Notes: a model not told the origin generated them from the letters alone. A stretch of 64,000 bases of DNA from Campylobacterota bacterium (GCA_014764025.1 JACXUD010000001.1:10643-74642), one strand, 5' to 3'; positions 19,682-39,664 are shown, numbered from the stretch's first letter. Numbers and translations: made by a program.

Positions 19682-19724
19682 TTTATTCCTTTTTATAAGA
19701 TATGATATTAGTTTACCCTACTTC

Positions 19725-20154: not shown

Positions 20155-20156
20155 AA

Positions 20157-20669: not shown

Positions 20670-20681
20670 TACTCTTCCCTC

Positions 20682-20864: not shown

Positions 20865-21041
20865 GCTCTCCTCAAGCCCTTCTAGCTATGCTTTGCTAAA
20901 AGCAACCCTTACTAATGTTGGACTGTCTGCCTCACCCTCATTTTCAGGGATATACACCTCAAGTCCTATTACGATCTCGTCTGCTCCGATATTAAAGATT
21001 TTCATTTCATTTCCTTTTCTTGATATATTTAAAGAGAACGA

Positions 21042-21368: not shown

Positions 21369-21394
21369 GGAATTTCCTTTTCTTGATATATCTG

Positions 21395-21403
21395 ATTATA
21401 TCA
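21395..21403 (-). promoter_or_regulatory. extended -10 promoter element (TGATATAAT on minus strand)
   Basis: The reverse complement of attatatca lies just downstream of the 21510-21527 terminator and about 27 nt upstream of ATG 21368. Confidence 0.45.
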
Positions 21404-21509
21404 TAAATATATTTTTAAATTAATAGTTTTAGAGGTTTTTGTCAATTTTTTATAGTATTTTTCGGTATTTTTTTGTGAGAATTTTTCTATACAAAGGAAG
21501 TGTAAAAAA

Positions 21510-21527
21510 ACACCTTGGAAAAGGTGT
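21510..21527 (-). terminator. intrinsic terminator ending the long minus-strand operon (bidirectional design)
   Basis: ACACCTT-ggaa-AAGGTGT 7-bp stem flanked by A7 on one side and T6 on the other, starting 6 nt after the stop of the 882-aa gene. Confidence 0.6.
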
Positions 21528-21532
21528 GTTTT

Positions 21533-24181
21533 TTACTTGCTGAGTCCGCTTGTGAGAGCCACTAGGCTCTCTTGTGAAACGGTATTTGTGCTAACCGGAA
21601 TTATGGTTTCCTTCTCTTCTTCGGTAGTAGAGGTAGTGATAGAGCTATCCGCTTTTCTCTGCTCTTCGGTGACTGTCGTTTTAAGGCTTTCCCTCATGGC
21701 ACTTTCCGCAGCTTTTGGTTTGCGGGAATTGCTAAGTTGTGCCTCTCTTACGATCCCGAAGAAAGGAGCAAGTGTTTTTACTTCTTCAACGGTCTTTTTG
21801 GCTGCTTCATTTATTGCCTTGACCACTGTGGGTCTAGGTGCAATCTCCTCTTTGTTGTCCTGGCTCTTGACATACATTGGGTTTGTTTCGCTAGAACGTG
21901 GCACGAAGTACGCTTGTCTTCCCATTCTCCAATCAGGTACTCCGCTTGAGAGCATTGATAGGTAGCTTCCAAGTGCTTTAGCGTGTGCATAACTTGGCTG
22001 TGCTGATAGGTAATCATAGATCGTAGGCTCTTCTTTGGCACTTCTCATGTACGCTGCTCCTTCTTCTGCAAGTCCATTGATCGTGAAGCCCGAAACGTGG
22101 AGATCTCTGATTGTCGCCATCATTGCCTTGTTGAGCTGTACCCTATCAGAGGAGATTTGTGCTTTTTGTTCCTCACTCAACCCTTGTGCACCTAAAGCGT
22201 CAGGGCTTGGGAACTTGACTGTATTTGGCAATACTCCGTTGTCAATACCTTCGCCCATTGCCTCGATAGCTTGTCTCGCCATTTCTGTTAGCTTACTGGC
22301 TGCGTTGGGATTTCTTAGAAGTGTATAATTCTTGTTGTTAAGCTCTCTAAAGTCAAAACGGTTGGTAAGTTTGGCAGCATTCACTATTGCGGCATAACTT
22401 CCCTCTTTCCCTCCTAGTGTTTTGCCTATATCAATCGTTCCCTTGCTTGGGTTTAGATCATTTAGTAGTGACCTCAACGCATCTGCCAACACTCCGCTTA
22501 TATCTTCCCCTCCTCTTTTCTTTATGTGACGTTCTACCCTTTTTTCAAGCTGCACATAAAGTTCAGAGTAAGGTATCTCTTTTTCATTGGCGGTAGTATA
22601 AACCCCCCTGCTATCCACTTTACTCAATCTATAAATAGACTCAGCGATATCGTCTGCGACTGTCGCTTCAAGTTTTGCGGGTAGAACTGTGCTTCCTGCC
22701 TGAAGAGAAGCAATAGAGTATCCAGGAGATAGGACTACTTCTTTGATTTGGGTATTTTTGATATTTCTCACAACCGTATCAAACTGCAAAACTGTCGTGA
22801 TAACGCTTGATAGGTTTCCGTCACGGATATTTCTAGCGATATCCCAAGTCAGCCCTGGTTTATAGTTTCTTGCGATATTCCCTTTTCCATCAGTTCCCCA
22901 TCTGAACATTCCGTGCTGATCTTCTTTTGTGATCTTGTCATCCCTCTCGGCAAGAATAGCTGTTGCAAAAAGCTTGGACATATCTGAGAAGTTCATAAGA
23001 TAATCCGCATCAACATCCTTGAATACTTGTGCATAACCTTTCTCTTCGATCCATTGTTGAAATTTCTTGCCGATCACATCAAGTTCTATTTTGAAGCTTT
23101 CTTGTTGTGCCGGATCGCCTTCTGCTCCCTTGATCTTTGCAAGGATATCTTTAACGGCTTTATGGAACGCCATACCCTGACTGTATTCTTTGAATTTACG
23201 GAAAGGGTCGGTTTCCTTACTCTGTATCTTTCTATCGAGTCTTGAAGTATCGATTGCTACTGGCATACCTAACTCAGGAGAATACCCGGTCACAATCCCT
23301 CCGACCTCTGTTCTAAAAGAAGGCTCACCCGACAAAATGCCCTCCCACTTTATTTTCCCACCTAGTTCTTGAGCCAATTCCTCTTTTTTGTTGGTAGGTG
23401 CTTTGGTCTTATTGTACGCAGAAAGAAGCTCGAATTGGAAGGCATTAAGCGGGACCCAGTTAAGATCGTTTGCGGAAAGCTCTATCTTCTTATCCATGAT
23501 CATCCTAGAGAGTTTATATGCACTCTCTTTGATCTTGCTTCCCGTCACTTTGTTTTCATAAGCTAGTTCTTGTTGTTCGATTCTACCCATGACATTGATA
23601 TAGTTATTGATATTCTCATCGGTTGAAACACTAAGAACGGCATTCATGGAATTTATAAGGTGTGGTATAGTGTCGCTATTGACATCGATGCTTTTGATGT
23701 ATGTGCCGTTTGGTCCATCTTCTCTGTGGATATACTTTTCAAAATCTTTAGAGAAGAAAAGGGCCTCCGGGTGTGCTTCCAAAAACGCTTCTGCAAAATC
23801 TATCTTATTTGGATCAGGCAAAATCCTTGTAACCATCTTTGCGAACAGTGAGGTTTTGACTCCTTGTTCCGCACCCATCATGGCCGCAAGCTCTTGTTGC
23901 GTAAGGATCTCTTTATTATCTCCGATAAACTTCGTGCCGGCTAAGAAATTCCCTTGCCCATCCCATGCGATCTCCGCTACACGCTTATTGTCTTTGAAAA
24001 TATCTGTAACTGCATCTGTTTGGGCAAACCCCAAAGGAATGATTCTTGCTTCACTTGGTAATTCACTTAATTCCTCTTGGGTAAATCCTTGCTCTTCAGG
24101 GAAAGAAGCGTATGGTATTGTTGGAGAGGAAGCAAAATCGATATATGTTCCTACGGGTCTTAATTTTTCTAAGTCAAGCAT
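21533..24181 (-). CDS. large hypothetical protein (882 aa), soluble, no recognisable motif
   Basis: Long uninterrupted track ORF with RBS AAAAGGAAAA upstream. No Walker, HUH or TM features seen. Confidence 0.6.
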   Translation of the reverse strand: MLDLEKLRPVGTYIDFASSPTIPYASFPEEQGFTQEELSELPSEARIIPLGFAQTDAVTDIFKDNKRVAEIAWDGQGNFLAGTKFIGDNKEILTQQELAAMMGAEQGVKTSLFAKMVTRILPDPNKIDFAEAFLEAHPEALFFSKDFEKYIHREDGPNGTYIKSIDVNSDTIPHLINSMNAVLSVSTDENINNYINVMGRIEQQELAYENKVTGSKIKESAYKLSRMIMDKKIELSANDLNWVPLNAFQFELLSAYNKTKAPTNKKEELAQELGGKIKWEGILSGEPSFRTEVGGIVTGYSPELGMPVAIDTSRLDRKIQSKETDPFRKFKEYSQGMAFHKAVKDILAKIKGAEGDPAQQESFKIELDVIGKKFQQWIEEKGYAQVFKDVDADYLMNFSDMSKLFATAILAERDDKITKEDQHGMFRWGTDGKGNIARNYKPGLTWDIARNIRDGNLSSVITTVLQFDTVVRNIKNTQIKEVVLSPGYSIASLQAGSTVLPAKLEATVADDIAESIYRLSKVDSRGVYTTANEKEIPYSELYVQLEKRVERHIKKRGGEDISGVLADALRSLLNDLNPSKGTIDIGKTLGGKEGSYAAIVNAAKLTNRFDFRELNNKNYTLLRNPNAASKLTEMARQAIEAMGEGIDNGVLPNTVKFPSPDALGAQGLSEEQKAQISSDRVQLNKAMMATIRDLHVSGFTINGLAEEGAAYMRSAKEEPTIYDYLSAQPSYAHAKALGSYLSMLSSGVPDWRMGRQAYFVPRSSETNPMYVKSQDNKEEIAPRPTVVKAINEAAKKTVEEVKTLAPFFGIVREAQLSNSRKPKAAESAMRESLKTTVTEEQRKADSSITTSTTEEEKETIIPVSTNTVSQESLVALTSGLSK

Positions 24182-24276
24182 GGTTTTCCTTTTTCTGCCT
24201 AAGCGTGTTCTTGTATAGATATTTTACAAGAAACGGAGCGTTTATAGGAAAAATACCAAACTCTTTAGGATTTTAT

Positions 24277-24936
24277 TCACCAGCCGTTTCTGAGGTGTTC
24301 TTGCTCTAGTATATGGGAAATACTTTTGATCCCCACAAGCTCATCAGTTATCACTATTTCTTTCTCGAAGCCAATATGCTCAATGAAAGCCAGTGTGCGA
24401 TTTTCTATAAGTCTATACTTGTCTTTTTCTGATAAGTCGCCGAGTCCACTATCGGTCATCGACAAACCTCCTAGTGCAATGATGGTGTTCTGAATGCCAT
24501 TCTGAGGATTGATCAGACTCTTGTAGTGCTTAACGGCTCCTTCGTAATCCTTTCCAAAGTCCATCATCACTGCAACTTGCCCCTCTTTGCCTCTCAATAG
24601 ACCTTTTTTTATGGTCGTGGTTTTTTCGTTTTGGCTTATATACTGCATTTCGCAATAGATCCTATGTCGCATGAAGTCATACCACTCTTTTCCGTTCTCT
24701 CCAACATACACAATATAAAGGCTCAGATCATCCCTCTTTGACATTTCGAGGCAAGAACTGTAAAAGAACGGCTCTCTTTGATTTCTTTCTCTCCCCATAT
24801 AAAGATAATGCTTTTGGATAGTAAGCTCTCTTCTGTTCTCTGACACTTTATTGCTCCTTGAGTGATTCTTGATTTTTTTTACCCTCGAACTCTTCGAGTG
24901 CTTCTTTGTTTTCTTCTGATATTTGAAAGGCTGCAT
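24277..24936 (-). CDS. hypothetical protein (start uncertain: 24936 or ATG 24798)
   Basis: Track ORF. The first 30 codons overlap the upstream gene. Confidence 0.45.
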   Translation of the reverse strand: MQPFKYQKKTKKHSKSSRVKKIKNHSRSNKVSENRRELTIQKHYLYMGRERNQREPFFYSSCLEMSKRDDLSLYIVYVGENGKEWYDFMRHRIYCEMQYISQNEKTTTIKKGLLRGKEGQVAVMMDFGKDYEGAVKHYKSLINPQNGIQNTIIALGGLSMTDSGLGDLSEKDKYRLIENRTLAFIEHIGFEKEIVITDELVGIKSISHILEQEHLRNGW

Positions 24937-25303
24937 TTGTTGCTACTGCCCTAAGATAAATAAGTCGTTGTCTTGTATTCGTCTTTTGAAGCTCTGAGGT
25001 ATTGTTGAGCGATGAAACCATTTTGCTTACTTCCTGGGAAGCCCTGCTGAGTTCTTCGTATTCTGACAAGGTAAGAGCGATGATCTCATCGAGCTTCCTT
25101 GTCTCTTTATCTAGCTGCTCATCAAGTTTTTTCATTTCCTCTATTGTTTTCAGAGAAGCTTTTCGTAGATCGATGAGCTTTTCTAGTGCTGCGGCTTCTT
25201 GAGGATCGCAAGTATCTCCAAACCCATACAGAGGCATACTGGCAAGCAAAGCCAAAAGTGTGCCTTTTAGTAATTGTCTTATATGGAAGTTTATCAAATT
25301 CAT
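24848..25303 (-). CDS. exported coiled-coil protein (151 aa)
   Basis: Hydrophobic N-terminus LLKGTLLALLASMPLYG, then heptad-like K/E/L-rich sequence. Confidence 0.5.
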   Translation of the reverse strand: MNLINFHIRQLLKGTLLALLASMPLYGFGDTCDPQEAAALEKLIDLRKASLKTIEEMKKLDEQLDKETRKLDEIIALTLSEYEELSRASQEVSKMVSSLNNTSELQKTNTRQRLIYLRAVATNAAFQISEENKEALEEFEGKKNQESLKEQ

Positions 25304-25827
25304 TTACCTTCTTTTCTAGCTTTTAGCTCTTGTGCCATATTCTCGTCGAACATATCTTGTAAAATAGCGGTATTGGTCCTAAGAGAAACAACGCACATCA
25401 AAGCAGTATTATTGAGGGTCGAAACGTATGAATTTGTCATATTCTTTAATTTGCTCGTATTAAAGGAGAGCTTGAACTGTGCTGCATACTCATTGATACC
25501 TGACGCAATCGCATCATCCAATGAGGCATCCATTTCTTTTTCACTCTCGATCATTTTGTCTGTCTGACGTTTTCCTTCCTCAAGATACGAAATCCAGTCG
25601 CCGGAAAGTTCAGAGTAGAACTTGTTTTTATCTACCCCTCTATGCACTTGGGCAATAGCGTTCATCTGAAGCATAAGTGCTTTTCTGCATAGTGCGGTGT
25701 CCGATGCTTCTTTACAAGCTTCATTTGCTTCGTCTATTTTCTCTTGTTTCAATCCGTCGTTTTCAGGATTGATCTCCGCAAAAAGCATCGAGATCAAAAG
25801 CAATGAAGAGTAAAGTATTTTCTTCAT
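25300..25827 (-). CDS. exported protein (175 aa)
   Basis: Signal peptide MKKILYSSLLLISMLFA. 4-nt overlap with the downstream gene. Confidence 0.5.
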   Translation of the reverse strand: MKKILYSSLLLISMLFAEINPENDGLKQEKIDEANEACKEASDTALCRKALMLQMNAIAQVHRGVDKNKFYSELSGDWISYLEEGKRQTDKMIESEKEMDASLDDAIASGINEYAAQFKLSFNTSKLKNMTNSYVSTLNNTALMCVVSLRTNTAILQDMFDENMAQELKARKEGK

Positions 25828-25838
25828 CTTGTTCCTCT

Positions 25839-26576
25839 TTATTTAGTAAGGTTTGTAGGCTTATAAAGCTCTGTGAATGTGATACCAAGCGGATTGATAG
25901 GACTACCCTTTGAAGGATCAACTTTCCCTATTGCCTCTACTATCATATTCCCCTCTCTCTGTCTGTAACTTTCAGTATTTCCATCAAAGATACTTGCGAC
26001 CACCTTGTAGCTGATACGAATACTAAAGGAGTCGCCGTCTGTTCTGAAGTCCTCAATGCTCTGATCAGTAATAGAGTAGAACTCGACAAGCGTGTTTTTG
26101 TTCATCCCAAATACCATAGAGGTCAGATACGCTTCAAAGTCATTATATGCCTTGCTGTTCTTCTCTAGGTAGTTGTCTCTGAATATTACTGCCTCTTCTG
26201 AATTTGCATAGAAATCATCAAGCGTTCTGATAGGCACTTGGAAGTTGTTCGATACTTTCCCCCAAGTATAAAGTCCGTAAAGCCTGATATAGTTGGAGAT
26301 ACCTCTCTTGAATTCAGTGGAGGCCACATTCAGCTTAGTAGGAACGACGGTTATGGCTCTTCCCATAATATCCATCATAATTATCCCTTTACTTAACTGC
26401 ACTCTTGATTCATCCATTCTTTGTGCTGCCGCATCAACCTTTTCATTCAGGGTAGTGCCCACATAGACATTCCAAGCCAGTGAAGCCGCCAACATTATCC
26501 AAAGCATCCAACAATTATTTACTAAAAAATCTTTCCATCTTTGGAACATTGAGCTATTGTATTTGATATTTCCCAT
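25839..26576 (-). CDS. bitopic membrane protein (N-terminal TM + ~200-aa periplasmic domain)
   Basis: CWMLWIMLAASLAWNVYVG. The topology resembles the VirB8/DotI/TraE class, but no sequence motif supports that assignment. Confidence 0.5.
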   Translation of the reverse strand: MGNIKYNSSMFQRWKDFLVNNCWMLWIMLAASLAWNVYVGTTLNEKVDAAAQRMDESRVQLSKGIIMMDIMGRAITVVPTKLNVASTEFKRGISNYIRLYGLYTWGKVSNNFQVPIRTLDDFYANSEEAVIFRDNYLEKNSKAYNDFEAYLTSMVFGMNKNTLVEFYSITDQSIEDFRTDGDSFSIRISYKVVASIFDGNTESYRQREGNMIVEAIGKVDPSKGSPINPLGITFTELYKPTNLTK

Positions 26577-27265
26577 TACTTGATACCTTTCATTGATTGA
26601 TTCTGTATTTGCTCTTGTGCGTATTGTTGTGCTAGTTCTATCTGTAGTTCTTCGTCTCTAAAGAGGTCTAGTTGTGTTCTGAGTGATTGTTTACTGCCAA
26701 GTTCCATGACTCCTTCCTCCTGATTGTACTTTTTGAGCATATAGCCTTTAAGGGCTTTCTTTTCTGATCCCTTGGAAATAAATCGTGCCGTGGCGATCTT
26801 GAACATCATCGAGTGAGACCAACTCTCTCTTGAAGCTTCCGCAAATTGTTGTTCATAATGAACGATTTGGGCATCATTGAGAGCTCTCTGAAGTAAGAAG
26901 GAGTCCAAAATCTCTATGATCTTCAACGCCTCCACCTCCAATGATTCTGTTTTTGGTGCAAGTTCGTCATTAAGGTAGTAGTCAATATACTCAAAGACCG
27001 ACTCAATCTGAGAAGGGCTTATGATCCCTATTGAGGAGAGAAAGAGAATGATATACTCTTTGTCCACTTTAATTTTAGTTCCTTCCGGCAACGGCTCCAA
27101 AGAAGCACTCATAGGGATAAGCGTAGGGTGAGGAAAAAGATCAAAGCCCTTATTCTCCATGATGAAGCTATTATCGACCCTTGGATACCCAAATATCCCG
27201 TTTAGATATCCGGTGTTGAGGTATCTCATTGCTTTTTTGACAATATCTAGTCCTCCCATACCCAA
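26576..27265 (-). CDS. hypothetical soluble protein (229 aa)
   Basis: Track ORF. The start of the downstream gene overlaps its stop by 1 nt. Confidence 0.5.
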   Translation of the reverse strand: MGMGGLDIVKKAMRYLNTGYLNGIFGYPRVDNSFIMENKGFDLFPHPTLIPMSASLEPLPEGTKIKVDKEYIILFLSSIGIISPSQIESVFEYIDYYLNDELAPKTESLEVEALKIIEILDSFLLQRALNDAQIVHYEQQFAEASRESWSHSMMFKIATARFISKGSEKKALKGYMLKKYNQEEGVMELGSKQSLRTQLDLFRDEELQIELAQQYAQEQIQNQSMKGIK

Positions 27266-28563
27266 CCCCTTGTCTCTTTCACTTCTTTGATCTTATACTT
27301 GATGATCGTTCCCACTTGCTCTCTATACTCTGCCATGTCTTCTTTAGTGTAGCCGTCATGGTAAACCAAAGGTCTTTCTTTTGAGAGCAATTTTTCTACT
27401 TTAGTGAAGATATTGAGAAAGAAGATTTCAATAAACTTTATTGCTATTTCATCATTAATGTCTCCACGCTTGTCTCTTTCTCTAATGTCTGTAGATATCT
27501 CGACCATTTCTTCTTCCACGATTCGCTCTATTGCCCTTTTATTGAGGTTGATAATCTTTCTATTGTATGCTGCACAAAAAAATCTTCTCACCTCGCCCAT
27601 TTCTCCACCCATCAGAAGAATAGAAGAGAGTCTTTTTCCCACTTCTCCGGCAAAGCGTGTAGCAAGCACATTTTTATTCATCATTACCTCTAATGAATGA
27701 AGTAGTGCTGCGTGTCTTACTTGTGCCCGATCTGCTTTGTCTGCTTTCAGATAAACCCTTGAGAGCTCCAATACCTCAACTGTCTCCCTATTCTCTACAG
27801 TAAGTAAAGGAGAGAAAATAACCGAGAACAGCGAAGATCTTCCTCCTGGCTCGCACCACGCTACCTCTTTTTCAAAGAACAAGAAGTCTAGCGGTGCAAT
27901 AGTGGTTTCTTTTTGGGCAAAAAGTCCCGAAAGTCTCTTATTGAGTACACCCATTATCGAAAAGAAGTTAGACAATACATCGCTATCGGATATCTTCATA
28001 AGAAGCATATTGCTTTTATCAAAAAAGCTCTGTTGGTTTTTTATAAACTCCGAAGACTCAAAAACGCTTACTGCGGAATCTGCATGATATTCAATACTCC
28101 ACTCTCCGTTCTGCTCACCTACGAAGCAACTTTTTGCTTGTCTCCCGAATTCATAGGAGAGCTTGAGTAGTCTCAAGATATCCTCTCCGTCCTCTCCGAA
28201 GATAGTGAATTTATTTAAGAGCTCTTCATTTAAGATCGTGTGCGAGAAAAGTCCCAAAATAGCAAGGATCGCATTTTGCTCATAGATCGCTTGCTTGTCC
28301 AGTACCGCCTCTTCCGCTTTTGACTCCAATAGAATTCTGATCTCTTCTAGGATCGCATAAAAGAGTAGTGCCTTTTGAGGCGAAATGTTTTCAATGTGGC
28401 TATCCCATATACTTGCTTCCTCTACCGTCTTGTACCGGAACGTATTGATATTCTTTGGTCCACCCTCTGTTTGCATAAGCATTTGAATAAGATTGTAGTA
28501 AGTATAGAACTTGAGTGCGGGAATTGCGACGATGTTCTTAGCCACATTGTTGTTAGTTTTCAT
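27247..28563 (-). CDS. hypothetical soluble protein (438 aa)
   Basis: Track ORF overlapping both neighbours. No motif recognised. Confidence 0.55.
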   Translation of the reverse strand: MKTNNNVAKNIVAIPALKFYTYYNLIQMLMQTEGGPKNINTFRYKTVEEASIWDSHIENISPQKALLFYAILEEIRILLESKAEEAVLDKQAIYEQNAILAILGLFSHTILNEELLNKFTIFGEDGEDILRLLKLSYEFGRQAKSCFVGEQNGEWSIEYHADSAVSVFESSEFIKNQQSFFDKSNMLLMKISDSDVLSNFFSIMGVLNKRLSGLFAQKETTIAPLDFLFFEKEVAWCEPGGRSSLFSVIFSPLLTVENRETVEVLELSRVYLKADKADRAQVRHAALLHSLEVMMNKNVLATRFAGEVGKRLSSILLMGGEMGEVRRFFCAAYNRKIINLNKRAIERIVEEEMVEISTDIRERDKRGDINDEIAIKFIEIFFLNIFTKVEKLLSKERPLVYHDGYTKEDMAEYREQVGTIIKYKIKEVKETRGWVWED

Positions 28564-28966
28564 TGTAGGTCTCTTTTACTTCTTTTTTGATCGATTTATA
28601 GATTGCTTGCTCTAATAAAAAGATTTCCATTTTATTAGAAGAGTCCAGTGCATCGCCCTCAAGAGACACCGCCTCGGTAAGTGGTACGCTTTTAAGTGTT
28701 GTCATTTTTGACGCAAGTTCATTCTTGAGAGTTTCGTTTCGCTTTCTGAGCTCTGCTAGGAGTGCATAGGTTTTATTTAGGTACTCTCTTTTCTCTTTAT
28801 GCTTATATGCCCAGTAAGCAATCTCTTTATATGTGTCCGTCATGGCATTCTTGTCGAGTCTTTCTACTATTGGCTTGCAAACCAATGCGTTTGCACTGGT
28901 AGCCAAAAAGAGTAGTAATGTATTCAATGCTAGTAGCTTTCTCATCTTATTCCATCCCGTAAGCAA
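28553..28966 (-). CDS. small exported protein (likely start at MRKLLALNTLLLFLATSANA)
   Basis: Signal peptide with an A-x-A-like site, followed by a helical K/E-rich body. Confidence 0.5.
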   Translation of the reverse strand: MLTGWNKMRKLLALNTLLLFLATSANALVCKPIVERLDKNAMTDTYKEIAYWAYKHKEKREYLNKTYALLAELRKRNETLKNELASKMTTLKSVPLTEAVSLEGDALDSSNKMEIFLLEQAIYKSIKKEVKETYNEN

Positions 28967-30470
28967 AAGCGGATACTTTTCCTAATGCTTTTTCTATATC
29001 GGTAGCCTTTTTGTAGGCTGCACTGATCAGAGTCTCTTGTGCCATGTGTCGATTAATTATCTGCTTGTATTTATCCCTTGCATCAGGCGGTAGTTTGTCG
29101 ATAGTGTCTTGCCCCATGTGTGTCAGCATCTTGTGTCTTCTCGTGGCATTTCTTGCCACCACAAAAACATTCGCTGCCGTTCTAGTGGTATAGACATCTT
29201 CCACATAAGGCTCTGAAGGCACTCCAAAGTCCCTATCGGCGATCTTCGCATACTCGCTTTGGACCTTTTCCACGTATCCATCACGGATATATGTTCTTCC
29301 TGCACCTTTGTTGTAGCAGTTGATCCCTTCATACGTCACACCAAACTTGCCCACACAATCACTGAACACCGTCACACCATAATCCACGCCAACACTGGCA
29401 ATAGAAACGGTTTGCGAGAAAGTTCCGTGCCCCGGATACCTTTGAAGTACAACATCTTGGTGAGCATAGTTGTTGATTTGCATGATCCCGAAGTCTTGTG
29501 AGCCGTTACTGTTCCTTGCCCCTACTGCATCAGGTCTCAGCCTACTTTCGTGCATTCCGATTGCAAGTGCCATCTTCCAATTTCCTAAACCTTGTGCTTG
29601 AGATTTTTCATAATAAAGAGGCCAAAAGGTATCGACTCTCCCTTCAAGTGTCGAAGATATCTCTCTGCTCCCCTTGGAAACCATTGCCTCTCCTTGAGTC
29701 TGTATTTCAGCTTGTATCTCGCTCTCTGAAATATTCCCATACTGTCTGCCTCCGGTTAAACTACAGTCATCACCCGAGACACCCGTTTTCTGAGAAGCCT
29801 CCTTACACTCTAGGTAGCGTTGGAGTCTTCTAGTGTTCATCATGTTTATTCCGGCATCCTTTACGGCCTTATCTATCTCGCCGCCTTTCCCATAAATCTT
29901 TTTATTGTCTGCGGAATCGATCTCTACATATCTCTTTGGATCGGTACTGCTAGAGTTTTCGCCGAAAGTCTCCTTGCCTCCAAATAGAGCAATCTTTTTT
30001 GAGGCAAGTTGGTCATACCCGCCTATCCCGCTTAACGCTTTTGAGAATTCTTTTTCCTTCTCCTCTAGCGTACTGGTACAGAAGCTCTTGAGCCTTTGCT
30101 TTTGACATCCACTCATATTACTCGTTACATTCAAACTACAAGGCCCTAGATCAAGATTGAGATTATCAGTGAATGACATCAGCTTATCCAAGTGCGAGTC
30201 AAGTGAATCAAGTACCGAACATATATCTGCTGAAGGTAGCGAAAAAGATGGCATAGTACATTGAGCAGTGATAGTACCTAGTCCCGGAATCGTTATATCT
30301 CCCGTACTGGATGAAGCAGTATTGAGAGCGTCATTCAAAAGATCTCCTCCGCTTTCTGTATTCAGCACATCATTTAAAGTCCCCCCTTGCAAAGAAGCAC
30401 TTCCAAAGAAGAGAGTGAATACTGTTGAGGCTACGAACTTCATATACTTATTCTGCTGTGTTTTCTTCAT
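28947..30470 (-). CDS. exported lytic transglycosylase (SLT domain) with extra N- and C-terminal modules
   Basis: Signal peptide. MALAIGMHESRLRPDAV (catalytic E-S), FGIMQIN and CYNKGAG form the SLT signature. The N- and C-terminal modules are shared with the next two genes. Confidence 0.75.
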   Translation of the reverse strand: MKKTQQNKYMKFVASTVFTLFFGSASLQGGTLNDVLNTESGGDLLNDALNTASSSTGDITIPGLGTITAQCTMPSFSLPSADICSVLDSLDSHLDKLMSFTDNLNLDLGPCSLNVTSNMSGCQKQRLKSFCTSTLEEKEKEFSKALSGIGGYDQLASKKIALFGGKETFGENSSSTDPKRYVEIDSADNKKIYGKGGEIDKAVKDAGINMMNTRRLQRYLECKEASQKTGVSGDDCSLTGGRQYGNISESEIQAEIQTQGEAMVSKGSREISSTLEGRVDTFWPLYYEKSQAQGLGNWKMALAIGMHESRLRPDAVGARNSNGSQDFGIMQINNYAHQDVVLQRYPGHGTFSQTVSIASVGVDYGVTVFSDCVGKFGVTYEGINCYNKGAGRTYIRDGYVEKVQSEYAKIADRDFGVPSEPYVEDVYTTRTAANVFVVARNATRRHKMLTHMGQDTIDKLPPDARDKYKQIINRHMAQETLISAAYKKATDIEKALGKVSAFAYGME

Positions 30471-31578
30471 TGCTTTCCCTTGCTAGATATGCCTTTAAGT
30501 CCTCTATCGGTGCTTTTGGATCATAGGCAGAAGATACCGCTTCAACCTTCCCATAGCCCAACATGATAGAATTCTTCTTGAGGTTTACTGTCTCTTTATA
30601 GAGTGCATCGATCAAAATATCTGCGGCATTTTGTCTCGCTACGCCGTCTGAATACTCATTTGCAACCTCTTCAGGCATCTTGTCCATACTTTCAGAGTCT
30701 TTATAGACATAGTAGGTGCTTCCTCTAGCTGCTTTGTTCATGGTCTTAAATTCTGCTGCCGAAGCGATCTCTATTTTAGATACTTGCTTCTTTGCGATTG
30801 AGCCAATACTCTCTTTCCCGTACTCTACCTCTTGCTTACAGTCATCTTTCGCCTTGTCCTCTTTATCATTACACTCTGCAAGCTTCTTTTGGTACTCTGC
30901 TTCAACTGAAGCTAGATTGGCCGCCACACTTTCGTCTGATACTGCAATATGTTGTGCAGCTTCCACTATCTGCTTCTCTGTTTCCACGGAGTCTTCAGGG
31001 AGCTTCATGTATCCTGGCTCTTTACACTTCTCTCCGTGCATCTTCATACAATCTCTCACATCATCAATGGAGGAGGAGAAGATCCCGTACCGATTTCCCA
31101 TTTCCTCAATCGGTGTCTTTTTTTCTATCTCTTCATTGGTTAGACCGCTTGGATGCTTAATATCTTTGAGCTCTTTCCCGCCTTTACAATCTTTCCCCTT
31201 AGAGCCCTTGATCAGCTTATATTCATTTGATGAGGTAGTTATAGGGTTAAGCGGGGACATCACACCTTTCTTATCGTCCCCCAGTGCTTCAGTACATCTT
31301 TTTTTAAGATCATCAAAAAAATCACTGTTGGATGTGGTAGAGATATTGCACCCACCTATCGAGAAGTTTCCATTTAGAAGTTGCTCTATGGAAGATACGG
31401 CTCCGCAAATATCATCCGCTTCAGGTATGTTAAAATCACAACTTAGGGAAACGCTACTATTGGTACTTACCAATCCGTCTGTGCTTGTAGTAGCAACACT
31501 GAATGGACTTGCAAAGACCGCACTCGACACAAGAAGAGTTACTCCGATCCTTTTTGACTGTCTAATTATGTTCTTCAT
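30448..31578 (-). CDS. exported Cys-containing protein, paralog of flanking genes (376 aa)
   Basis: Signal peptide. LSCDFNIPEADDICGAVSSIEQLLNGNFSIGGCNISTTS aligns with the N-terminal modules of the 507-aa and 309-aa proteins. The VETEKQIVEAA and C-terminal MPEEVANEY modules are also shared. Confidence 0.55.
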   Translation of the reverse strand: MKNIIRQSKRIGVTLLVSSAVFASPFSVATTSTDGLVSTNSSVSLSCDFNIPEADDICGAVSSIEQLLNGNFSIGGCNISTTSNSDFFDDLKKRCTEALGDDKKGVMSPLNPITTSSNEYKLIKGSKGKDCKGGKELKDIKHPSGLTNEEIEKKTPIEEMGNRYGIFSSSIDDVRDCMKMHGEKCKEPGYMKLPEDSVETEKQIVEAAQHIAVSDESVAANLASVEAEYQKKLAECNDKEDKAKDDCKQEVEYGKESIGSIAKKQVSKIEIASAAEFKTMNKAARGSTYYVYKDSESMDKMPEEVANEYSDGVARQNAADILIDALYKETVNLKKNSIMLGYGKVEAVSSAYDPKAPIEDLKAYLARESNEENTAE

Positions 31579-32504
31579 GGCAATACCTCTGTTTGAATTG
31601 CATCAGTTTCACTTCTTGACACGCTCTCATAGCGAGATACTGAAGTGATTGCCTCTTTGGTTGCAAGTATTTCACTCATATCTTTTCTAAGATTGTTGAT
31701 AGCCAACATCGAAGCATAGGTCTCTGTTTTGGCACTTTCCTCAATAGTTGAAATCTGAATATATTTTTCTCTCATGTCAGGCGGGAGATCATTTTTTACC
31801 TCATCGGAAATAAGAAACACGCTCTTGCTTTCCGTCGTTGCCAACTTGAGTGTTGCACTTTTCGCATTAAGCTCTCTGTCATACCCTTCTTTTGAATTTT
31901 TGCTTCTCTGAGAGTTTAGATTTAGGCTGCTTTTGAAGTCGCATGACATAGAGCTTAGTGTGCTGTCTTTTTTGCAATCTTCTTTTTCTTCCGTGGACGC
32001 TACCGTGGAGTATCCTTGGCTTTGCTCATCAGCGTCGGGATAGTTTTGAGCCAAAGCAGCTTCTACAATTTTCTTCTCGGTCTCTACCGTATCTTTACCG
32101 CCCATAAAACCCATTTCACCATAATGTAGCTCTCTTGAAAAAATATTCATTGACTTTTCTTTCCCCTCTCTCCTTTTTGTCTTTTCTTGTTCTGAGGATG
32201 TTGGAATAGTCGCTGTTGTAGAATAAACGAATTTGCCCTCCCTGAGTGCTTTCTCAAAAGGGCTCTCACTCAAAATAAATGCTTGAGACTCAGGCGTATG
32301 CTCTAGCCCGGAACTTGAGATACTGCATGGACCAATATTAAAATTGAATGTCAGTAGATCATCGAGTTTCCCCAATAGGTCGAAATCGGTACATTCGATA
32401 GCAGCATTAATTCCAATAGACTTATCGGTAGTGGAGTCCGTTTCGCCTCCCATTAATACTGTTGTGAGTAGTGCTATTGCTATTATTTTACGATGCTTTG
32501 GCAA
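31575..32504 (-). CDS. exported protein, third paralog (309 aa)
   Basis: Signal peptide. IECTDFDLLGKLDDLLTFNFNIGPCSISSS, VETEKKIVEAA and LPPDMREKYIQI. Confidence 0.55.
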   Translation of the reverse strand: MPKHRKIIAIALLTTVLMGGETDSTTDKSIGINAAIECTDFDLLGKLDDLLTFNFNIGPCSISSSGLEHTPESQAFILSESPFEKALREGKFVYSTTATIPTSSEQEKTKRREGKEKSMNIFSRELHYGEMGFMGGKDTVETEKKIVEAALAQNYPDADEQSQGYSTVASTEEKEDCKKDSTLSSMSCDFKSSLNLNSQRSKNSKEGYDRELNAKSATLKLATTESKSVFLISDEVKNDLPPDMREKYIQISTIEESAKTETYASMLAINNLRKDMSEILATKEAITSVSRYESVSRSETDAIQTEVLP

Positions 32505-33310
32505 GTTTCATCCCCTGAAAGCTGTAAACAAAATCTCTTCTTTTCCCTTTCGTTAGAGAAGAGTATCCTATATCCTTTTGAAGTTTCACTGTAACTAGCC
32601 CCGTAGCTTGACAAAAAGCCTTCAACCGTAGAGCTCTTGTAAGGAATATAAAGAGTGGTCTTATCTTGCACCCTGCCTGGTGTCTTTGGTCTTGCCGTCT
32701 TATTCCCCGCAATAGAGTTCAGATCAGGCAGATCGAAAGCATTAGGATTTCTTGGTGCTGAAGCTATTGTAGTTGCTGGGGGTGGTGGTGTTATTGAGGA
32801 TGAGGTAGGCGTACTAACTTCTCTGATCGTCGGCACGACTGTTTCCATAGTGTCATCACTGCCACCAAAACCATCATACTTCTTATAAAGCGGGACCAAA
32901 AAGAGATCTTCCGCACTAAAAGTTCTTTCTACTTTTGGAGCTTCGATCTTAATGCGGTATGTTCCGTTCTCTTTGATTTTATAGATTCTAGGATAGGTAA
33001 TCTTCCCCTCTTCCAGGAGGTATTTACCTGCCTCTTGAGCTTTTACCATTTCCTTGTATTTGGATATAGTTCTCTTAAAATCTCCAAGGGCGAGCTTGTA
33101 TCCTTTTTTGATATATTCTGCTTTTGCACTTTTTCTACCAAGATCATAGTAGAATTTTTGCATTTGAGTCATATCTGAAGGTGCTTCAGTTCCATGCAAT
33201 AAGCTTGTCGCAAAAAGAGCGACAATAAGTGCCTTAGAGAGGTTTACTGACAACATGGCTTTCTTCTTGATATCTAGGCTCTTGAGGGTATTTATTGTCA
33301 TTTCCTTCAT
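32483..33310 (-). CDS. exported protein with Pro/Thr-rich linker (275 aa)
   Basis: Hydrophobic N-terminus ALIVALFATSLLHG and linker TPTSSSITPPPPATTIASAP. Confidence 0.5.
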   Translation of the reverse strand: MKEMTINTLKSLDIKKKAMLSVNLSKALIVALFATSLLHGTEAPSDMTQMQKFYYDLGRKSAKAEYIKKGYKLALGDFKRTISKYKEMVKAQEAGKYLLEEGKITYPRIYKIKENGTYRIKIEAPKVERTFSAEDLFLVPLYKKYDGFGGSDDTMETVVPTIREVSTPTSSSITPPPPATTIASAPRNPNAFDLPDLNSIAGNKTARPKTPGRVQDKTTLYIPYKSSTVEGFLSSYGASYSETSKGYRILFSNEREKKRFCLQLSGDETCQSIVK

Positions 33311-34718
33311 TGTCTAGTTCTTCTTTAAGTTTTGCTCTTAGTCCCTTACTCTCTTCGATCTCCTCCACAAGAAGGTCGTAAAGCTTGGAAATGGTTTTCT
33401 CCATAGACGCTATCTTTTCCTCTAACGGTTTAGTTGCCTTTGTGACCATGCCTTCAAGCGTTGTCATTGTTCCCTCATTTGGGGAAACTTCTTTCTCTTC
33501 CGTCTCATCTTCTTCCTCTGAAGAGCGAGGTGTACCCAAATTGAATTCTTTGAGTTTTTCTTCTAGTGCTTCACCTACATTGTATTTGATGTAGTCTCCA
33601 AACCCTTCTTCATCGGCTTGTCCAGTAATCATTTCTTTTAGGGAGTCAAAATAGAGTCTTAGCGATTCTTTTGTTGCAACTTCACTCTTTGGAGTCTCTT
33701 CTCTTTCTTCCTCTATGATATTCTCTATCGTGTTGTCTGAAGGAGTATAGGCTTGAAGCATCTTTTCCATTGTCTCAGTGAAAGTAACAAACTCTTCCAT
33801 GAGAATTTCTTTAACAATCGTTGCAATGGCATTAGGGTTGATCGTCGGTTGTGTTCTTGGCTGTTCTTCATCTTCTGAAACACTTGGAGCAACCAATTTC
33901 TCTTTGATGATTTCCTCTAATGCCTTAAATCCGTCCTCTTTGTCTTTTAGGGCATTTGCAACAAGTTCTTTGAGCTCTCCTATCTCTTTCTCAATCACTT
34001 CAGTAGAAGGTGCGGTTTGTTGCTCCTGGTACACCCTTGGTCCACCAAAACTCACTTCCGAATCAGGAATTGTGATCCCCTCGATCTTCTTAATGAAAGA
34101 CTTCAGAGTGTTGTACATTTGAGTGCTTTCTGCATCATTGAAAAGTTTTACGATCTCTTGAATATTGACTTTGAATTTTTCATCAAACGCATTTAAAGCA
34201 GCGTCCTTTTCATTTTCAAAAGTCGGGCCTTTGAGCATAAAGTAGTTTCTGATCTGAGCTTTTACTTTTCCGTGATTTTTATAAACATCATCCATGATAG
34301 CCATAAAAATACCATGAGGATTGATCACATCATTTAGTAGATGAGAAGCCACAAGCCCAGTTCTGTAAAGTTCAGGAAGGTCTTTTAGCAAAAAGAGAAA
34401 AGTGTAAGCATTGATATCTCTTAGCCCTACAACGCCCTCTACTTTTTCACTAACTACTGTTTCATGCTCATTGTAGATACTCTTAATGATATTGGATACG
34501 CCCACTTGAGAGTAGATACCCGGCATTTCATTCCCTGCTCTATAAAAAGAAGCGAGCGTCTGCTGTTCATTCTCTCCGTCCTCCAAGATAGCTGCAAGCA
34601 GAGAAGTTTTGTCGATCTCAAACTCTCCTTTGCTTGCTGTCGCCACAAGCCCCTCTATTCCTCTGCTTGAAACTATTTGTTGTCTGTTGCCATTATTACC
34701 GTTTGTATTGTATTGCAT
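33234..34718 (-). CDS. acidic, Glu-rich soluble protein (494 aa)
   Basis: Track ORF with long E/K-rich helical stretches. No motif recognised. Confidence 0.55.
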   Translation of the reverse strand: MQYNTNGNNGNRQQIVSSRGIEGLVATASKGEFEIDKTSLLAAILEDGENEQQTLASFYRAGNEMPGIYSQVGVSNIIKSIYNEHETVVSEKVEGVVGLRDINAYTFLFLLKDLPELYRTGLVASHLLNDVINPHGIFMAIMDDVYKNHGKVKAQIRNYFMLKGPTFENEKDAALNAFDEKFKVNIQEIVKLFNDAESTQMYNTLKSFIKKIEGITIPDSEVSFGGPRVYQEQQTAPSTEVIEKEIGELKELVANALKDKEDGFKALEEIIKEKLVAPSVSEDEEQPRTQPTINPNAIATIVKEILMEEFVTFTETMEKMLQAYTPSDNTIENIIEEEREETPKSEVATKESLRLYFDSLKEMITGQADEEGFGDYIKYNVGEALEEKLKEFNLGTPRSSEEEDETEEKEVSPNEGTMTTLEGMVTKATKPLEEKIASMEKTISKLYDLLVEEIEESKGLRAKLKEELDNEGNDNKYPQEPRYQEESHVVSKPL

Positions 34719-34736
34719 GATTTTCCTTTTTAATTT

Positions 34737-34991
34737 TTACAGAAATACGAGTTTGTTTTTGTCTTTATTGTGTTGCAGTATGTCAGGCCGTCCATTCTCA
34801 GTAGAAAAAACACTGTATTCACTGAGATTGATTCTTTTGAGCCTGAAGCGGTATCTGATTCTCTTTACAAATTTGATACTTTGAAGTGTGATCAAGATTA
34901 AGAAAAAAGCCATGATCGCAGTCGATGAAATAAAGTAAACCAACTGCTCTATGTATTGAGAGGCTTGGGCTGCCTGATTCGCATTCTCCAT
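34737..34991 (-). CDS. small single-TM protein (84 aa)
   Basis: LVYFISSTAIMAFFLILITL followed by a basic stretch, KRIRYRFRLKR. Confidence 0.45.
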   Translation of the reverse strand: MENANQAAQASQYIEQLVYFISSTAIMAFFLILITLQSIKFVKRIRYRFRLKRINLSEYSVFSTENGRPDILQHNKDKNKLVFL

Positions 34992-35073
34992 TCGTTTCTC
35001 CTAGTGAAATTTTTTAAATGTTAGCGAAAAAAAAGGCATCCCAAAAGGATTTGGAAATTAAAAAAACTATTTT

Positions 35074-35613
35074 TTATCGGCATACTTGCTTGTGCTTTAT
35101 AAACATAAAGCTGTCTGCGTCCCCCGTCTTTACATGGCTTGTGAAAGCATAGTAGGCATCTATGAATTTGTTTGGAGTATAGACATGGGTGATCTCTGTT
35201 TCTCCTGAAGCATTTGTAGTGGAAGTCAGCGTGGACTCATCGGCAGTAACACCCGCAAAAGCTCCTCCACAAATATACCAGTTATCCGCATCGACTTCAA
35301 CCCTAAGATTGGCAGCATAAACCGGAACGGTCTTGCCTCCAACCTTTACTCCTACTTCGGAGATATTGGCAATCAGATCTGGCGTTGTAGCTCTACAATC
35401 TATCTTTGGCACTACAATACATCTATAATTTACCGTCTCCCCTCCGATTTGATAGCTGTTCGCACTCAGGGTCGGTGTCGCATTGCTGATTAGTTCATAT
35501 CCGGCTGATCTTTGAGACAGAACTATATTGTCATACTCTGCGGGAGTGAGATAGTTGCTTGCACCAAGAATACTGGAAAGCAAAACTCCCACAACCATAA
35601 GTTTGTTACGCAT
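35074..35613 (-). CDS. exported beta-rich protein with 4 Cys (179 aa)
   Basis: Signal peptide MRNKLMVVGVLLSSILGA. Confidence 0.5.
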   Translation of the reverse strand: MRNKLMVVGVLLSSILGASNYLTPAEYDNIVLSQRSAGYELISNATPTLSANSYQIGGETVNYRCIVVPKIDCRATTPDLIANISEVGVKVGGKTVPVYAANLRVEVDADNWYICGGAFAGVTADESTLTSTTNASGETEITHVYTPNKFIDAYYAFTSHVKTGDADSFMFIKHKQVCR

Positions 35614-35909
35614 TATCTTTTCTCCTTTCTAAAGGTTTCTACTAGGTCCTCGTAAATCAGCATGAGTGAGATAGGCGGGTGCAGATTTCCTCCGCACTGT
35701 GCCCTGAAAAGGTTTGCTACTGTTGCGATCTTTCCTTTTTCATCTTCGTTTCTTGCACTGTTCTTGGCTACGGGGATCGCTGCGTTCAAATTGTTTAGCC
35801 CACTTAGGTCAAATACAAGCCTCAACCATTCAAAGAGCTCTTTTTTCTCGACTGATATAGATATAGTCCCCAGTGTTTTTAATGTGTCGGACTGTTTATT
35901 TGTTTCCAT
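35613..35909 (-). CDS. small soluble protein (98 aa)
   Basis: Track ORF. The start of the downstream gene overlaps its stop by 1 nt. Confidence 0.45.
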   Translation of the reverse strand: METNKQSDTLKTLGTISISVEKKELFEWLRLVFDLSGLNNLNAAIPVAKNSARNEDEKGKIATVANLFRAQCGGNLHPPISLMLIYEDLVETFRKEKR

Positions 35910-35985: not shown

Positions 35986-37212
35986 CTACTTTTTTCTTCC
36001 GATGTTGAAGCCACCCGCTTCTTGAGGAGTAATCGTTCCGTTTTTGACCAACTCTTTAATGTGGTTTTCAAAGCTTATGGCCGTTAAATGCCTTCCGTTC
36101 TCTGTGCTTTCAAGGGACGCAACTACCTTGCTGATATCCCCGTTTGCTAGGTGTACCCTATCTTGCTCACTTGGTATCAGTATCTCAAAGAGTGGGACGA
36201 TCACCCCTTTGTTGTTAATATGAAGCTTGTGTGCCACGATTGCTTTAATGGAAGCGGCGAGTAGGTACTCCTCCCCTTTGGTAACAGAAGCTAGGGTGAC
36301 AAGAGCCTCTTTTACGTTAGAAGCGTGCATTGTTCCAAGTGCTAAGTGTCCCTTTACACCTACATCGATCATCATGCGGATATCTTTTTTCCCTCTTGCT
36401 TCACCAAACATTACTACCGAAGGGTTGTTTCTCAATAGGTGATTATTGATATTTTCCCTCAACTCATCTTCAGTCTCTCCGGTAATATCTCTTCCTAGCT
36501 CAAATTGTCTTACTGGTGCTGCTGTTGCAATGTGCCCGTATTCTATTGGATTTTCATAGGTAATGATAGTTCCCGTTGTTTCTTCCGCAAATAAGCCAAC
36601 CTCGGCTGCCAGTGCCGTAGTTTTCCCACTCCCAGTTGGGCCGCAGTGAAGAATTAACCCCCCACCTCTCACTACACCTCTCTTGAGCTTGCCTTCAGGT
36701 GTTGCGATCTCTACTTGGCTAATAAGCTTCTCGATCTCATTCTTGTAAAAAGAAGGGTAGCCTACGCCCTCGAATGTAGGTATCTCTGAAGTAAGGTATC
36801 TTACACTCAGCCCTTTTCCGCTTGCGTCAGAAGAGTAATTTATTCTGTAAACTCCAAGCCCCATAACATAGATCGAAAAATCAACACTCACGGACTCCAT
36901 TTTCTCATCTTTGAGATCAGTAAACTTTTTTACAAGAGAGGTGATCTGCTCACCAGAAACCATTACCGAGTTTCCTTGTTCGTCCTTAAACGGGATGTGG
37001 GCTTTTACTAGAGATACATTAACCGCCTGATCTTCCCTAATAAGTATATCCGTTACTCTAAACCCCTGATCGATCCATCCGGTCTTTATTTGCTTAATGA
37101 TTTTATAAAACCATACCCCGTTAGAGCCTAGTGCGACAACAAACTTATCCTCTCCCTTTGATTTGTTTTCATCAATAAATGAATTTGCGTTCTTTTTTTG
37201 TGCTATGATCAT
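35986..37212 (-). CDS. PilT/DotB-class hexameric secretion ATPase
   Basis: Walker A HCGPTGSGKTT, Asp-box/Walker B VVMFGEARGKKD and His box KGHLALGTMHASN. At 408 aa it lacks the long N-terminus and Zn-Cys motif of the GspE class. Confidence 0.8.
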   Translation of the reverse strand: MIIAQKKNANSFIDENKSKGEDKFVVALGSNGVWFYKIIKQIKTGWIDQGFRVTDILIREDQAVNVSLVKAHIPFKDEQGNSVMVSGEQITSLVKKFTDLKDEKMESVSVDFSIYVMGLGVYRINYSSDASGKGLSVRYLTSEIPTFEGVGYPSFYKNEIEKLISQVEIATPEGKLKRGVVRGGGLILHCGPTGSGKTTALAAEVGLFAEETTGTIITYENPIEYGHIATAAPVRQFELGRDITGETEDELRENINNHLLRNNPSVVMFGEARGKKDIRMMIDVGVKGHLALGTMHASNVKEALVTLASVTKGEEYLLAASIKAIVAHKLHINNKGVIVPLFEILIPSEQDRVHLANGDISKVVASLESTENGRHLTAISFENHIKELVKNGTITPQEAGGFNIGRKK

Positions 37213-39654: not shown

Positions 39655-39664
39655 TTCTCCTCTA

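Follow-up and report, generated by a model that had tools for sequence, protein, structure and literature searches.

Within a 64,000-nucleotide stretch of DNA from a Campylobacterota bacterium (GCA_014764025.1, JACXUD010000001.1:10643-74642; this whole stretch is called the window, and positions are counted from its first letter), a block of 15 open reading frames (ORFs), ORF1 to ORF15, lies downstream of the genes of a type IV pilus. We consider it probable, at roughly 0.6, that ORF3 to ORF14 encode the components that a highly divergent conjugative type IV secretion system (T4SS) of Campylobacterota plasmids places in the inner membrane and the periplasm. The system is probably a remote relative of the type IVB, or mating-pair formation (MPF) class I, machines, with envelope proteins that have either diverged beyond detection or been replaced; the link to type IVB is drawn because the predicted fold of ORF12 and all three ATPases of the locus point there. 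A preliminary description of the window had proposed a new or unrecognisable apparatus. By sequence the block is indeed not assignable to a known MPF class, but ORF12 and the ATPases point to a distant type IVB relationship; what is found here would thus most likely be a known kind of machine, type IV secretion and conjugation, with a divergent and previously undescribed set of envelope genes.

On its predicted structure, ORF12 is a bitopic protein of the VirB8/DotI/TraM class. An exhaustive profile search recovered 114 representative relatives, and an AlphaFold2 model based on a 98-sequence alignment reached a pLDDT of 94 and a pTM of 0.74 (a model from 16 sequences had a pLDDT of 57 and was too poor to use). 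The model shows an N-terminal membrane helix and, after it, helices that lie against a long antiparallel sheet of four strands, an NTF2-like arrangement. T4SS proteins matched in a Foldseek search of the PDB were DotI (3wz4/3wz5, target-normalised TM-score of 0.57-0.60), TraM of plasmid R64 (3wz3), an IcmL-like protein (5cnl), TcpC (3ub1) and CagV (6iqt). We favor the VirB8/DotI assignment because the membrane anchor, the periplasmic NTF2 domain and the genomic context are found in combination. Sequence profiles gave no link between the ORF12 family and the VirB8-class families, and none of the 98 aligned members matched the Pfam VirB8 family.

Family alignments were compared by hhalign with every transfer protein of R64 (IncI1, MPF_I; the genes read were traH-traY and trbA-C), R388 (MPF_T) and F (MPF_F). 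In these alignments all three ATPases of the window agree best with their R64 counterparts TraU, TrbC and TraJ. The VirB4-like ATPase scored 94.9% with TraU over 401 columns, which is the whole ATPase domain, as compared to 38% with TrwK of R388 and 15% with TraC of F. The coupling protein scored 99.1% with TrbC over 457 columns, 82% with TrwB of R388 over 95 columns and 71% with TraD of F, while the PilT-like ATPase, which was compared with R64 and R388 but not with F, scored 99.2% with TraJ and 96.7% with TrwD. The best NCBIfam match of the coupling protein is TrbC_conju (E 2.5e-29; 102 bits vs. a cut-off of 800), and the protein also matches Pfam TrwB_AAD_bind with 32.7 bits (cut-off 20.5). 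The PilT-like ATPase reached 69 bits with NCBIfam TraJ (cut-off 368), and the Pfam matches of the VirB4-like ATPase are HerA_C, FtsK_SpoIIIE and AAA_10 only. The PilT-like protein could be either a pilus retraction motor or the VirB11 equivalent of the system; hence the earlier statement that the window has no VirB11 no longer holds, a candidate being encoded immediately upstream of the block. The block families themselves scored no higher than 5.4% with any R64 Tra/Trb protein in hhalign, gave nothing below E 0.01 in phmmer, and showed no envelope match to the R388 Trw and F Tra proteins by hhalign. These negatives are weak evidence because the relationship of ORF12 to TraM, which the predicted structure supports, was missed as well (0.9% against the single R64 TraM sequence).

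The distribution of these genes among plasmids was determined by tblastn against the 72,556 plasmids of PLSDB. The 788-aa ATPase is encoded by 14 of them (12 from Campylobacter, one from Helicobacter cinaedi and one from Caminibacter), and a member of the ORF5 family, used as the query, detected exactly the same 14. A query from the ORF12 family found 13 of these 14, usually within a few kb of the ATPase gene, and a coupling protein of the same lineage found at least 11. Co-occurrence with the VirB4-like ATPase and coupling protein had been proposed as a check, and a block devoid of conjugation genes was not encountered among the PLSDB plasmids. In pICON, in a plasmid of Campylobacter corcagiensis and in plasmid mp1 of Campylobacter fetus, ORF5-like and ORF12-like genes flank the VirB4-like ATPase gene; in the 31-kb C. 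corcagiensis plasmid and in mp1, the ORF5-like, ORF12-like, SLT and ATPase genes form one co-directional run of 3-8 kb, which an ORF7-like gene joins in mp1. Plasmid pHELV-1 has its ORF12 homologue 4.5 kb upstream of the gene for the ATPase. A functional tie of the block to the VirB4-like ATPase and coupling protein is supported by these gene data, because the co-occurrence is 14/14 and 13/14 and because the genes share an operon with the ATPase in the smaller plasmids. The suggestion that the block works with this pair and with the pilus is therefore upheld for the former, but the pilus is not obligate, as judged from pICON, the C. corcagiensis plasmid and mp1.

Among the genes examined of these three plasmids, no pilus gene (secretin, pilin or PilB) was found. 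The type IV pilus appears from this comparison to be an optional accessory and not an obligate partner, because several relatives that possess block families yielded no pilus gene from the regions inspected. Contigs L027 and L028 have the genes of the ATPase, the 153-aa protein and the coupling protein in this order, followed by pilus genes in a contiguous and co-directional arrangement. In the window, the ATPase and coupling-protein genes (10481-15545, plus strand) are opposite in strand to the pilus and block operon (21533-48836, minus strand), and this separation is probably the result of a rearrangement. An inversion in the lineage of the window is suggested, since in L027 and L028 the ATPase and coupling-protein genes immediately precede the pilus genes and share their strand.

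Twelve of the 15 genes, ORF3 to ORF14, recur in the same order on related loci, namely metagenomic contigs, a Campylobacterales metagenome-assembled genome and Campylobacter concisus, at 20-50% identity; the set is partly present on Campylobacter, Helicobacter and Caminibacter plasmids. The block ORFs can be taken from this comparison to be true genes and not chance ORFs, because homologues of ORF3-ORF14 stand in the same order on independent contigs at that level of identity. The module is consequently smaller than the 15 ORFs first described: ORF3-ORF14 are conserved, but ORF1, ORF2 and ORF15 are not. The latter three may be lineage-specific cargo, because no homologue was seen in any related locus, and ORF1 at least is probably lineage-specific. 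pICON carries most of the core, and the C. corcagiensis plasmid and mp1 carry the ORF5, ORF12 and SLT families, with mp1 also encoding an ORF6/7/8-type protein. The gene order in the pICON family is ORF5-like, ORF8 N-terminal-like, a small gene, a gene of about 500 aa, ORF11-like, ORF12-like and a small gene, and the SLT domain is there encoded by a separate gene. Chromosomes were sampled by one scan of representative genomes with the ORF5 family, of which few members are findable by word index, and a scan of viral contigs with the same family gave none. As far as sampled, the module is confined to Campylobacterota plasmids.

All 15 ORFs of the block, described earlier as co-directional and tightly overlapping, were found on the minus strand at the coordinates first given, each preceded by a purine-rich ribosome-binding site. 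The junctions range from -23 to +18 nt, except that 76 and 82 nt separate the genes around ORF1 and ORF2; another 95 nt lie before the 882-aa gene. The genes are ordered as type IV pilus (48836-37233), PilT/TraJ-class ATPase, block and 882-aa gene, and probably constitute one minus-strand transcription unit from about 48836 to 21533. This end was placed because a bidirectional terminator-like hairpin occurs at 21510-21527, 3' of the 882-aa gene, and no terminator-like site stands out on the minus strand within the block, in agreement with the earlier placement of the block in the pilus operon. Hydropathy analysis reproduced the exact list of ten products with an N-terminal signal peptide or membrane anchor (beginning at 35074, 34737, 32483, 31575, 30448, 28947, 28553, 25839, 25300 and 24848). 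ORF1, ORF4, ORF10, ORF11 and ORF15 lack a signal peptide and look cytoplasmic; three of these five (ORF4, ORF10 and ORF11) are conserved. By hydropathy, each block protein has at most one hydrophobic segment, and a prepilin leader is absent from all of them. Independent gene calls on a 65.5-kb metagenomic contig (Logan SRR11282939_721), mostly covered by the window, place the starts of ORF5, ORF9, ORF11 and ORF15 slightly downstream of those of the longest ORFs.

Table 1. Features of the window discussed in the text; "called" denotes the independent gene calls, and lengths are otherwise those of the longest ORF.
Feature	Coordinates	Strand	Length and remarks
VirB4-like ATPase	10481-12847	plus	788 aa; FtsK/HerA/VirB4 superfamily
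153-aa exported protein	12844-13305	plus	153 aa; always between ATPase and coupling protein
Type IV coupling protein	13314-15545	plus	nearest to IncI1 TrbC/DotL
Final gene of the operon	21533-24181	minus	882 aa; no recognisable domain (Pfam, NCBIfam)
Block of 15 ORFs	24277-35909	minus	about 12 kb, tightly packed
ORF15	24277-24936	minus	219 aa (called 189); no signal peptide; no relatives
ORF14	24848-25303	minus	151 aa; small, exported; helical-looking by eye; paralogue of ORF13
ORF13	25300-25827	minus	175 aa; small, exported; helical-looking by eye; paralogue of ORF14
ORF12	25839-26576	minus	245 aa; N-terminal anchor and predicted periplasmic NTF2-like domain; second hallmark family
ORF11	26576-27265	minus	229 aa (called 227); no signal peptide; weak hydrophobic segment 72-90
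ORF10	27247-28563	minus	438 aa; lacks a signal peptide; conservation limited to close relatives
ORF9	28553-28966	minus	137 aa (called 130); small, exported, conserved; helical-looking composition by eye
ORF8	28947-30470	minus	507 aa; exported; ORF6/7-type N-terminal domain, SLT domain, shared C-terminal motif
ORF7	30448-31578	minus	376 aa; exported; paralogue of ORF6 and ORF8
ORF6	31575-32504	minus	309 aa; exported; paralogue of ORF7 and ORF8
ORF5	32483-33310	minus	275 aa (called start 33256, 257 aa); exported; hallmark family
ORF4	33234-34718	minus	494 aa; lacks a signal peptide; about 230 N-terminal residues form a conserved domain
ORF3	34737-34991	minus	84 aa; one transmembrane helix, then basic tail; conserved, including pICON-type loci
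ORF2	35074-35613	minus	179 aa; signal peptide; 4 Cys; absent from relatives
ORF1	35613-35909	minus	98 aa; no signal peptide; absent from relatives
PilT/TraJ/DotB-class hexameric ATPase	35986-37212	minus	408 aa; directly upstream of the block
Type IV pilus module	37233-48836	minus	
Large minor pilin	37233-38405	minus	390 aa; canonical prepilin leader KG/FSLLE (slash: cleavage mark)
Secretin	40270-42012	minus	
PilB-like ATPase	42033-43799	minus	
Putative major pilin	44367-44849	minus	160 aa; long leader ...RPA/FGLLE
Putative platform protein	44869-45852	minus	
Membrane protein	47298-48836	minus	512 aa; also conserved in pICON
Classical AAA ATPase	56634-58004	plus	homologues at five loci: pICON, L012, pHELV-1, C. 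corcagiensis plasmid, Caminibacter plasmid

Residues 295-411 of ORF8 constitute an SLT lytic transglycosylase domain (Pfam, 34.6 bits vs. a cut-off of 21.3), in which an E-S pair at 308-309 occupies, by eye, the usual position of the catalytic Glu of SLT enzymes; by this domain match ORF8 is a VirB1-like lytic transglycosylase. Iterated profile searches over the related loci showed that ORF6, ORF7 and ORF8 are paralogues sharing an N-terminal Cys motif and a C-terminal motif, and likewise established the paralogy of ORF13 and ORF14. The ORF7 family has seven invariant Cys residues and reaches pICON, pHELV-1 and mp1. In ORF5, a variable Pro/Ser/Thr linker connects two conserved domains, and a Cys pair stands at the C-terminus; the C-terminal part of ORF4 is an acidic low-complexity tail containing 96 Asp and Glu residues. 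The conservation of ORF11 extends to the pICON family, its gene being always immediately upstream of ORF12. The gene upstream of ORF5 in the small plasmids was considered as an ORF4 counterpart, and this link was rejected.

Pfam and NCBIfam recognised only the SLT domain of ORF8 among the block proteins of the window. That the transglycosylase is the sole assignable product, as had been noted by eye, holds at the sequence level across Pfam, NCBIfam, PHROGs and searches of PDB sequences, the last of which gave no match to the family profiles of ORF5, ORF7, ORF10, ORF11 and ORF12. A megablast search of PLSDB with the block gave no match. When 116 homologues and neighbours from ten related loci were scanned with Pfam and NCBIfam, the matches were to SLT, AntA, T2SSF and secretin families plus a few below threshold. 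Among the latter, one of the 116 proteins matched NCBIfam IcmG/DotF (E 1.2e-4) and another a Mycoplasma pilin-like protein of an integrative and conjugative element (ICE; E 1.8e-4). The secretin match (PilN family, NCBIfam) may come from the Caminibacter plasmid. In phmmer searches, R64 TraP gave weak matches to a gene of about 300 aa just upstream of the ORF5 homologue in loci L021 and L022. Profile searches thus do not assign most of the ORFs to a known MPF type, and the block is, by these searches, beyond sequence-based assignment to any of them.

Several observations weigh against a conjugative T4SS. The VirB4-like ATPase is, by its profile matches, no family-level VirB4: with TIGR00929 it scored 26 bits (cut-off 643) over the P-loop only, and its family profile matched HerA in the PDB (E 5e-7) better than the VirB4 protein TrwK (E 0.14). 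In the ORF12 search the top ranks were taken by plastid ARC6/PARC6, all E-values being about 1e-3; NTF2-like folds are common, and the fold alone is not specific. Structure prediction covered one of the 15 block proteins, ORF12. No relaxase was recognised by Pfam or NCBIfam among the ORFs scanned, which are part of those in the window, and no HUH-type motif was present in any listed ORF, a search that would miss other relaxase types. As the preliminary description had concluded by eye, there is no VirB6/DotA/TraG-like polytopic protein by hydropathy (the best candidate elsewhere, at 47298-48836, has three segments), and neither a VirB2 pilin nor a VirB7/9/10 or DotC/D/H/G core was detected by Pfam, NCBIfam or hhalign in the window and the 116 proteins of relatives. 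The exported proteins of the block look mostly helical by eye, unlike the beta-rich core proteins of the VirB9/DotH type. Finally, all 14 plasmids are typed as non-mobilizable by MOB-suite and no transfer is on record for any of them. The proposed apparatus is accordingly supported in part, by the SLT domain and the predicted VirB8/DotI-like protein; that it spans the envelope is a conjecture, because no outer-membrane component and no relaxase were identified.

The lack of a recognised relaxase or oriT (no search aimed at oriT was made) also bears on the best placed of the alternatives, namely that this is a T4SS-like machine with another task, such as delivery of effectors or toxins, DNA release or DNA uptake. 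Such a machine might secrete the 2552-aa protein encoded beside a conserved AAA ATPase, and mp1 has the module while no coupling protein was found there. We regard this alternative as unlikely, given that the window, like at least 11 of the 14 plasmids, encodes a coupling protein of the DNA-transfer type, that the module resides on plasmids with primase, ParA/ParB and recombination genes, and that among the 72,556 plasmid records it is limited to 14 plasmids of Campylobacter, Helicobacter and Caminibacter.

The operon structure raises a second alternative, in which the block is an accessory module of the upstream pilus that supplies assembly factors, minor subunits or adhesins and forms no channel. 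The block does follow the pilus genes and the PilT-like ATPase directly within one operon, and in contig L017 pilus genes are followed by homologues of ORF3-ORF8. Such a role is nevertheless improbable: ORF5, ORF12 and SLT are kept where no pilus gene was seen among the genes examined (as are ORF6/7/8 in pICON and mp1, and ORF11 in pICON), no block protein has a prepilin leader, and the fold predicted for ORF12 is of the VirB8/DotI type. Derivation of the module from an envelope-penetration or release apparatus of phage-plasmids, which the portal, terminase, capsid and tape-measure genes adjoining it in mp1, the YopX and AntA genes of relatives and the RecT gene of the window might suggest, is the least probable of all, since 50,697 phage records contain no match to the ATPase, ten block proteins have no significant PHROG match (best E 0.0068), no viral structure matches the ORF12 model convincingly, and the window has a coupling protein and no virion genes among the ORFs scanned.

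A conjugative system with type IVB affinities could operate as follows. The coupling protein, whose homology to TrbC/DotL is evident, would deliver the substrate DNA to a complex in the inner membrane, for which the TraU-like VirB4-class ATPase, homologous in its ATPase domain only, would supply the energy. ORF12, by its predicted fold, may serve as an inner-membrane and periplasmic scaffold, perhaps with ORF11 and ORF3 as partners. Peptidoglycan would be opened by the SLT domain of ORF8, and ORF5, ORF6/7/8 and ORF9/13/14 may build a structure that crosses the periplasm or forms a surface or tip. The PilT/TraJ-like ATPase and the type IV pilus would provide mating-pair contact and retraction, functions served in IncI1 plasmids by the thin pilus. 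In R64, the pil genes lie upstream of traE-traY, an order that the succession of pilus, PilT/TraJ-like ATPase and run of exported proteins in the window resembles.

Of the known systems, MPF_I/type IVB (IncI1 R64 and the Legionella Dot/Icm system) has the proteins with which the three ATPases of the window align best. Such systems also share with the window the anchored NTF2 fold of DotI/TraM type predicted for ORF12, a pilus with a secretin, PilB-like ATPase, pilin and PilV-like minor pilin co-linear with the transfer genes, and a PilT/TraJ-like ATPase before a long run of exported proteins. They differ in that TraH, I, K, L, N, O, P, Q, R, V, W, X and Y (DotD, C, H, G, F, A and others) are undetectable here by Pfam, NCBIfam and hhalign, apart from the sub-threshold DotF match in one relative; in that the ATPase of the window has 788 aa and R64 TraU 1014 aa; and in that window scans found no NikB-type relaxase or shufflon. 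In common with the minimal MPF_FA/FATA systems of monoderms (pCW3 Tcp), the recognisable parts are a VirB4-like ATPase, coupling protein, VirB8-like NTF2 protein and peptidoglycan hydrolase, with no VirB7/9/10 core recognised, but the hosts here are diderm Campylobacterota, the parts are nearer to type IVB and there is no TcpH-type polytopic protein. MPF_T (VirB/VirD4, R388 Trw) has the general parts in common with the window, namely an SLT protein, a VirB8-like protein, a VirB4-like ATPase, a candidate VirB11-class ATPase and a coupling protein, whereas hhalign against all R388 Trw proteins gave weak matches for the ATPases and SLT only, and none (nor by Pfam and NCBIfam) for VirB2, 3, 5, 6, 7, 9 and 10. 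MPF_G elements (PAPI-1, ICEclc) and MPF_F also combine conjugation genes with many exported Cys-rich periplasmic proteins, and MPF_G carries a type IVb pilus alongside, but NCBIfam and Pfam gave no match to the ICE families TIGR03744-03765 except for a 16.7-bit match of the ATPase to TIGR03744 over the P-loop only, and none to the F-type TraE, K, B, V, W, U, N, H and G families, with hhalign against the F Tra proteins being negative.

The window has a G+C content of about 40%, no tRNA genes, and a backbone of plasmid type, comprising ParA, ParB, a primase, RecT and a tyrosine recombinase, which fits a mobile element. The product of 37233-38405 looks, by its leader and size, like a PilV-type large minor pilin or adhesin. 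A shufflon that might be served by the integrase at 17776-18924 was sought and rejected, as 15500-24300 contains no suitable inverted repeats. A 2552-aa ORF without a Pfam domain (48919-56577, plus strand) precedes the AAA ATPase gene; giant ORFs occur elsewhere, of 2458 aa in pICON, again paired with an AAA ATPase, and of 2408 aa in L028, and an iterated search gave no link between the ORF of the window and that of pICON. A gene for a YkuD-type L,D-transpeptidase lies at 57820-58623 (plus strand), and its homologue in L017 (14056-14697) directly follows the truncated block; because of this adjacency, the system may include peptidoglycan remodelling beyond SLT. At 16973-17020 and 21380-21427 there is an AT-rich element of about 48 nt (TTCTTGATATATCT.ATTATATCATAAATA...), with partial copies at 21001-21028 and 21364-21391. 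It is located just upstream of minus-strand genes, namely RecT and a 108-aa ORF (21042-21368), and could by this position be a shared promoter or operator. A 506-aa protein (4498-6018, plus strand) shows a short N-terminal guanylate-kinase-like P-loop match only.

Two of the related plasmids merit separate description. On plasmid mp1 of C. fetus subsp. venerealis (L022; NZ_CP014569.1, 1-44765, 44.8 kb), the ORF5/ORF7/ORF12/SLT/ATPase module is accompanied by phage genes for a portal, terminase, capsid, tape-measure protein and holin. The ORF12 homologue there is broken into two pieces. A coupling protein was not found, and the 620-aa gene after the ATPase was considered for this role and rejected. 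Possibly mp1 is a phage-plasmid whose transfer module is decaying or has been repurposed. The Caminibacter pacificus plasmid (L026; NZ_CP040940.1), from a deep-sea-vent member of the Nautiliales, has a long co-directional gene run (11655-35002) in which the ATPase is accompanied by a pseudopilin, a PilB-like ATPase, an AAA ATPase and SLT; the ORF5 family is detectable there and the ORF12 family is not. The system is not described in the pICON papers or in the CampyICE1 paper, and CampyICE1 itself was set aside as a different system that uses annotated traG/N/L/E genes.

Conjugation systems are detected and classified almost wholly by profiles of eight known MPF types, and a plasmid without a match is scored as non-transmissible. 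The gene set reported here escapes Pfam, NCBIfam and MOB-suite, yet it looks like a transfer machine in its hallmark features. The chance that the system merits an MPF class of its own is a reasonable one. More tentatively, and at somewhat less than even odds, we propose a ninth class specific to Campylobacterota that would keep the ATPase trio, a DotI-like scaffold and the transglycosylase from a type IVB-like ancestor, while ORF5, ORF6/7/8 and the small exported proteins, none of them related to VirB7/9/10 or DotC/D/H, would make up its periplasmic and outer-membrane conduit; the pilus secretin would have been recruited in some lineages, and the "non-mobilizable" Campylobacter and Helicobacter plasmids, including pICON, would be self-transmissible. 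The hosts comprise Campylobacter jejuni, C. fetus, C. concisus (pICON), C. helveticus, H. cinaedi and the deep-sea Caminibacter, and pICON carries the csep1 marker linked to Crohn's disease. If the system is functional, mobility predictions for these plasmids would change, a very deep branch would be added to the evolution of type IVB systems, and a natural case of a T4SS envelope core replaced or diverged past recognition would bear on which parts of these machines are indispensable.

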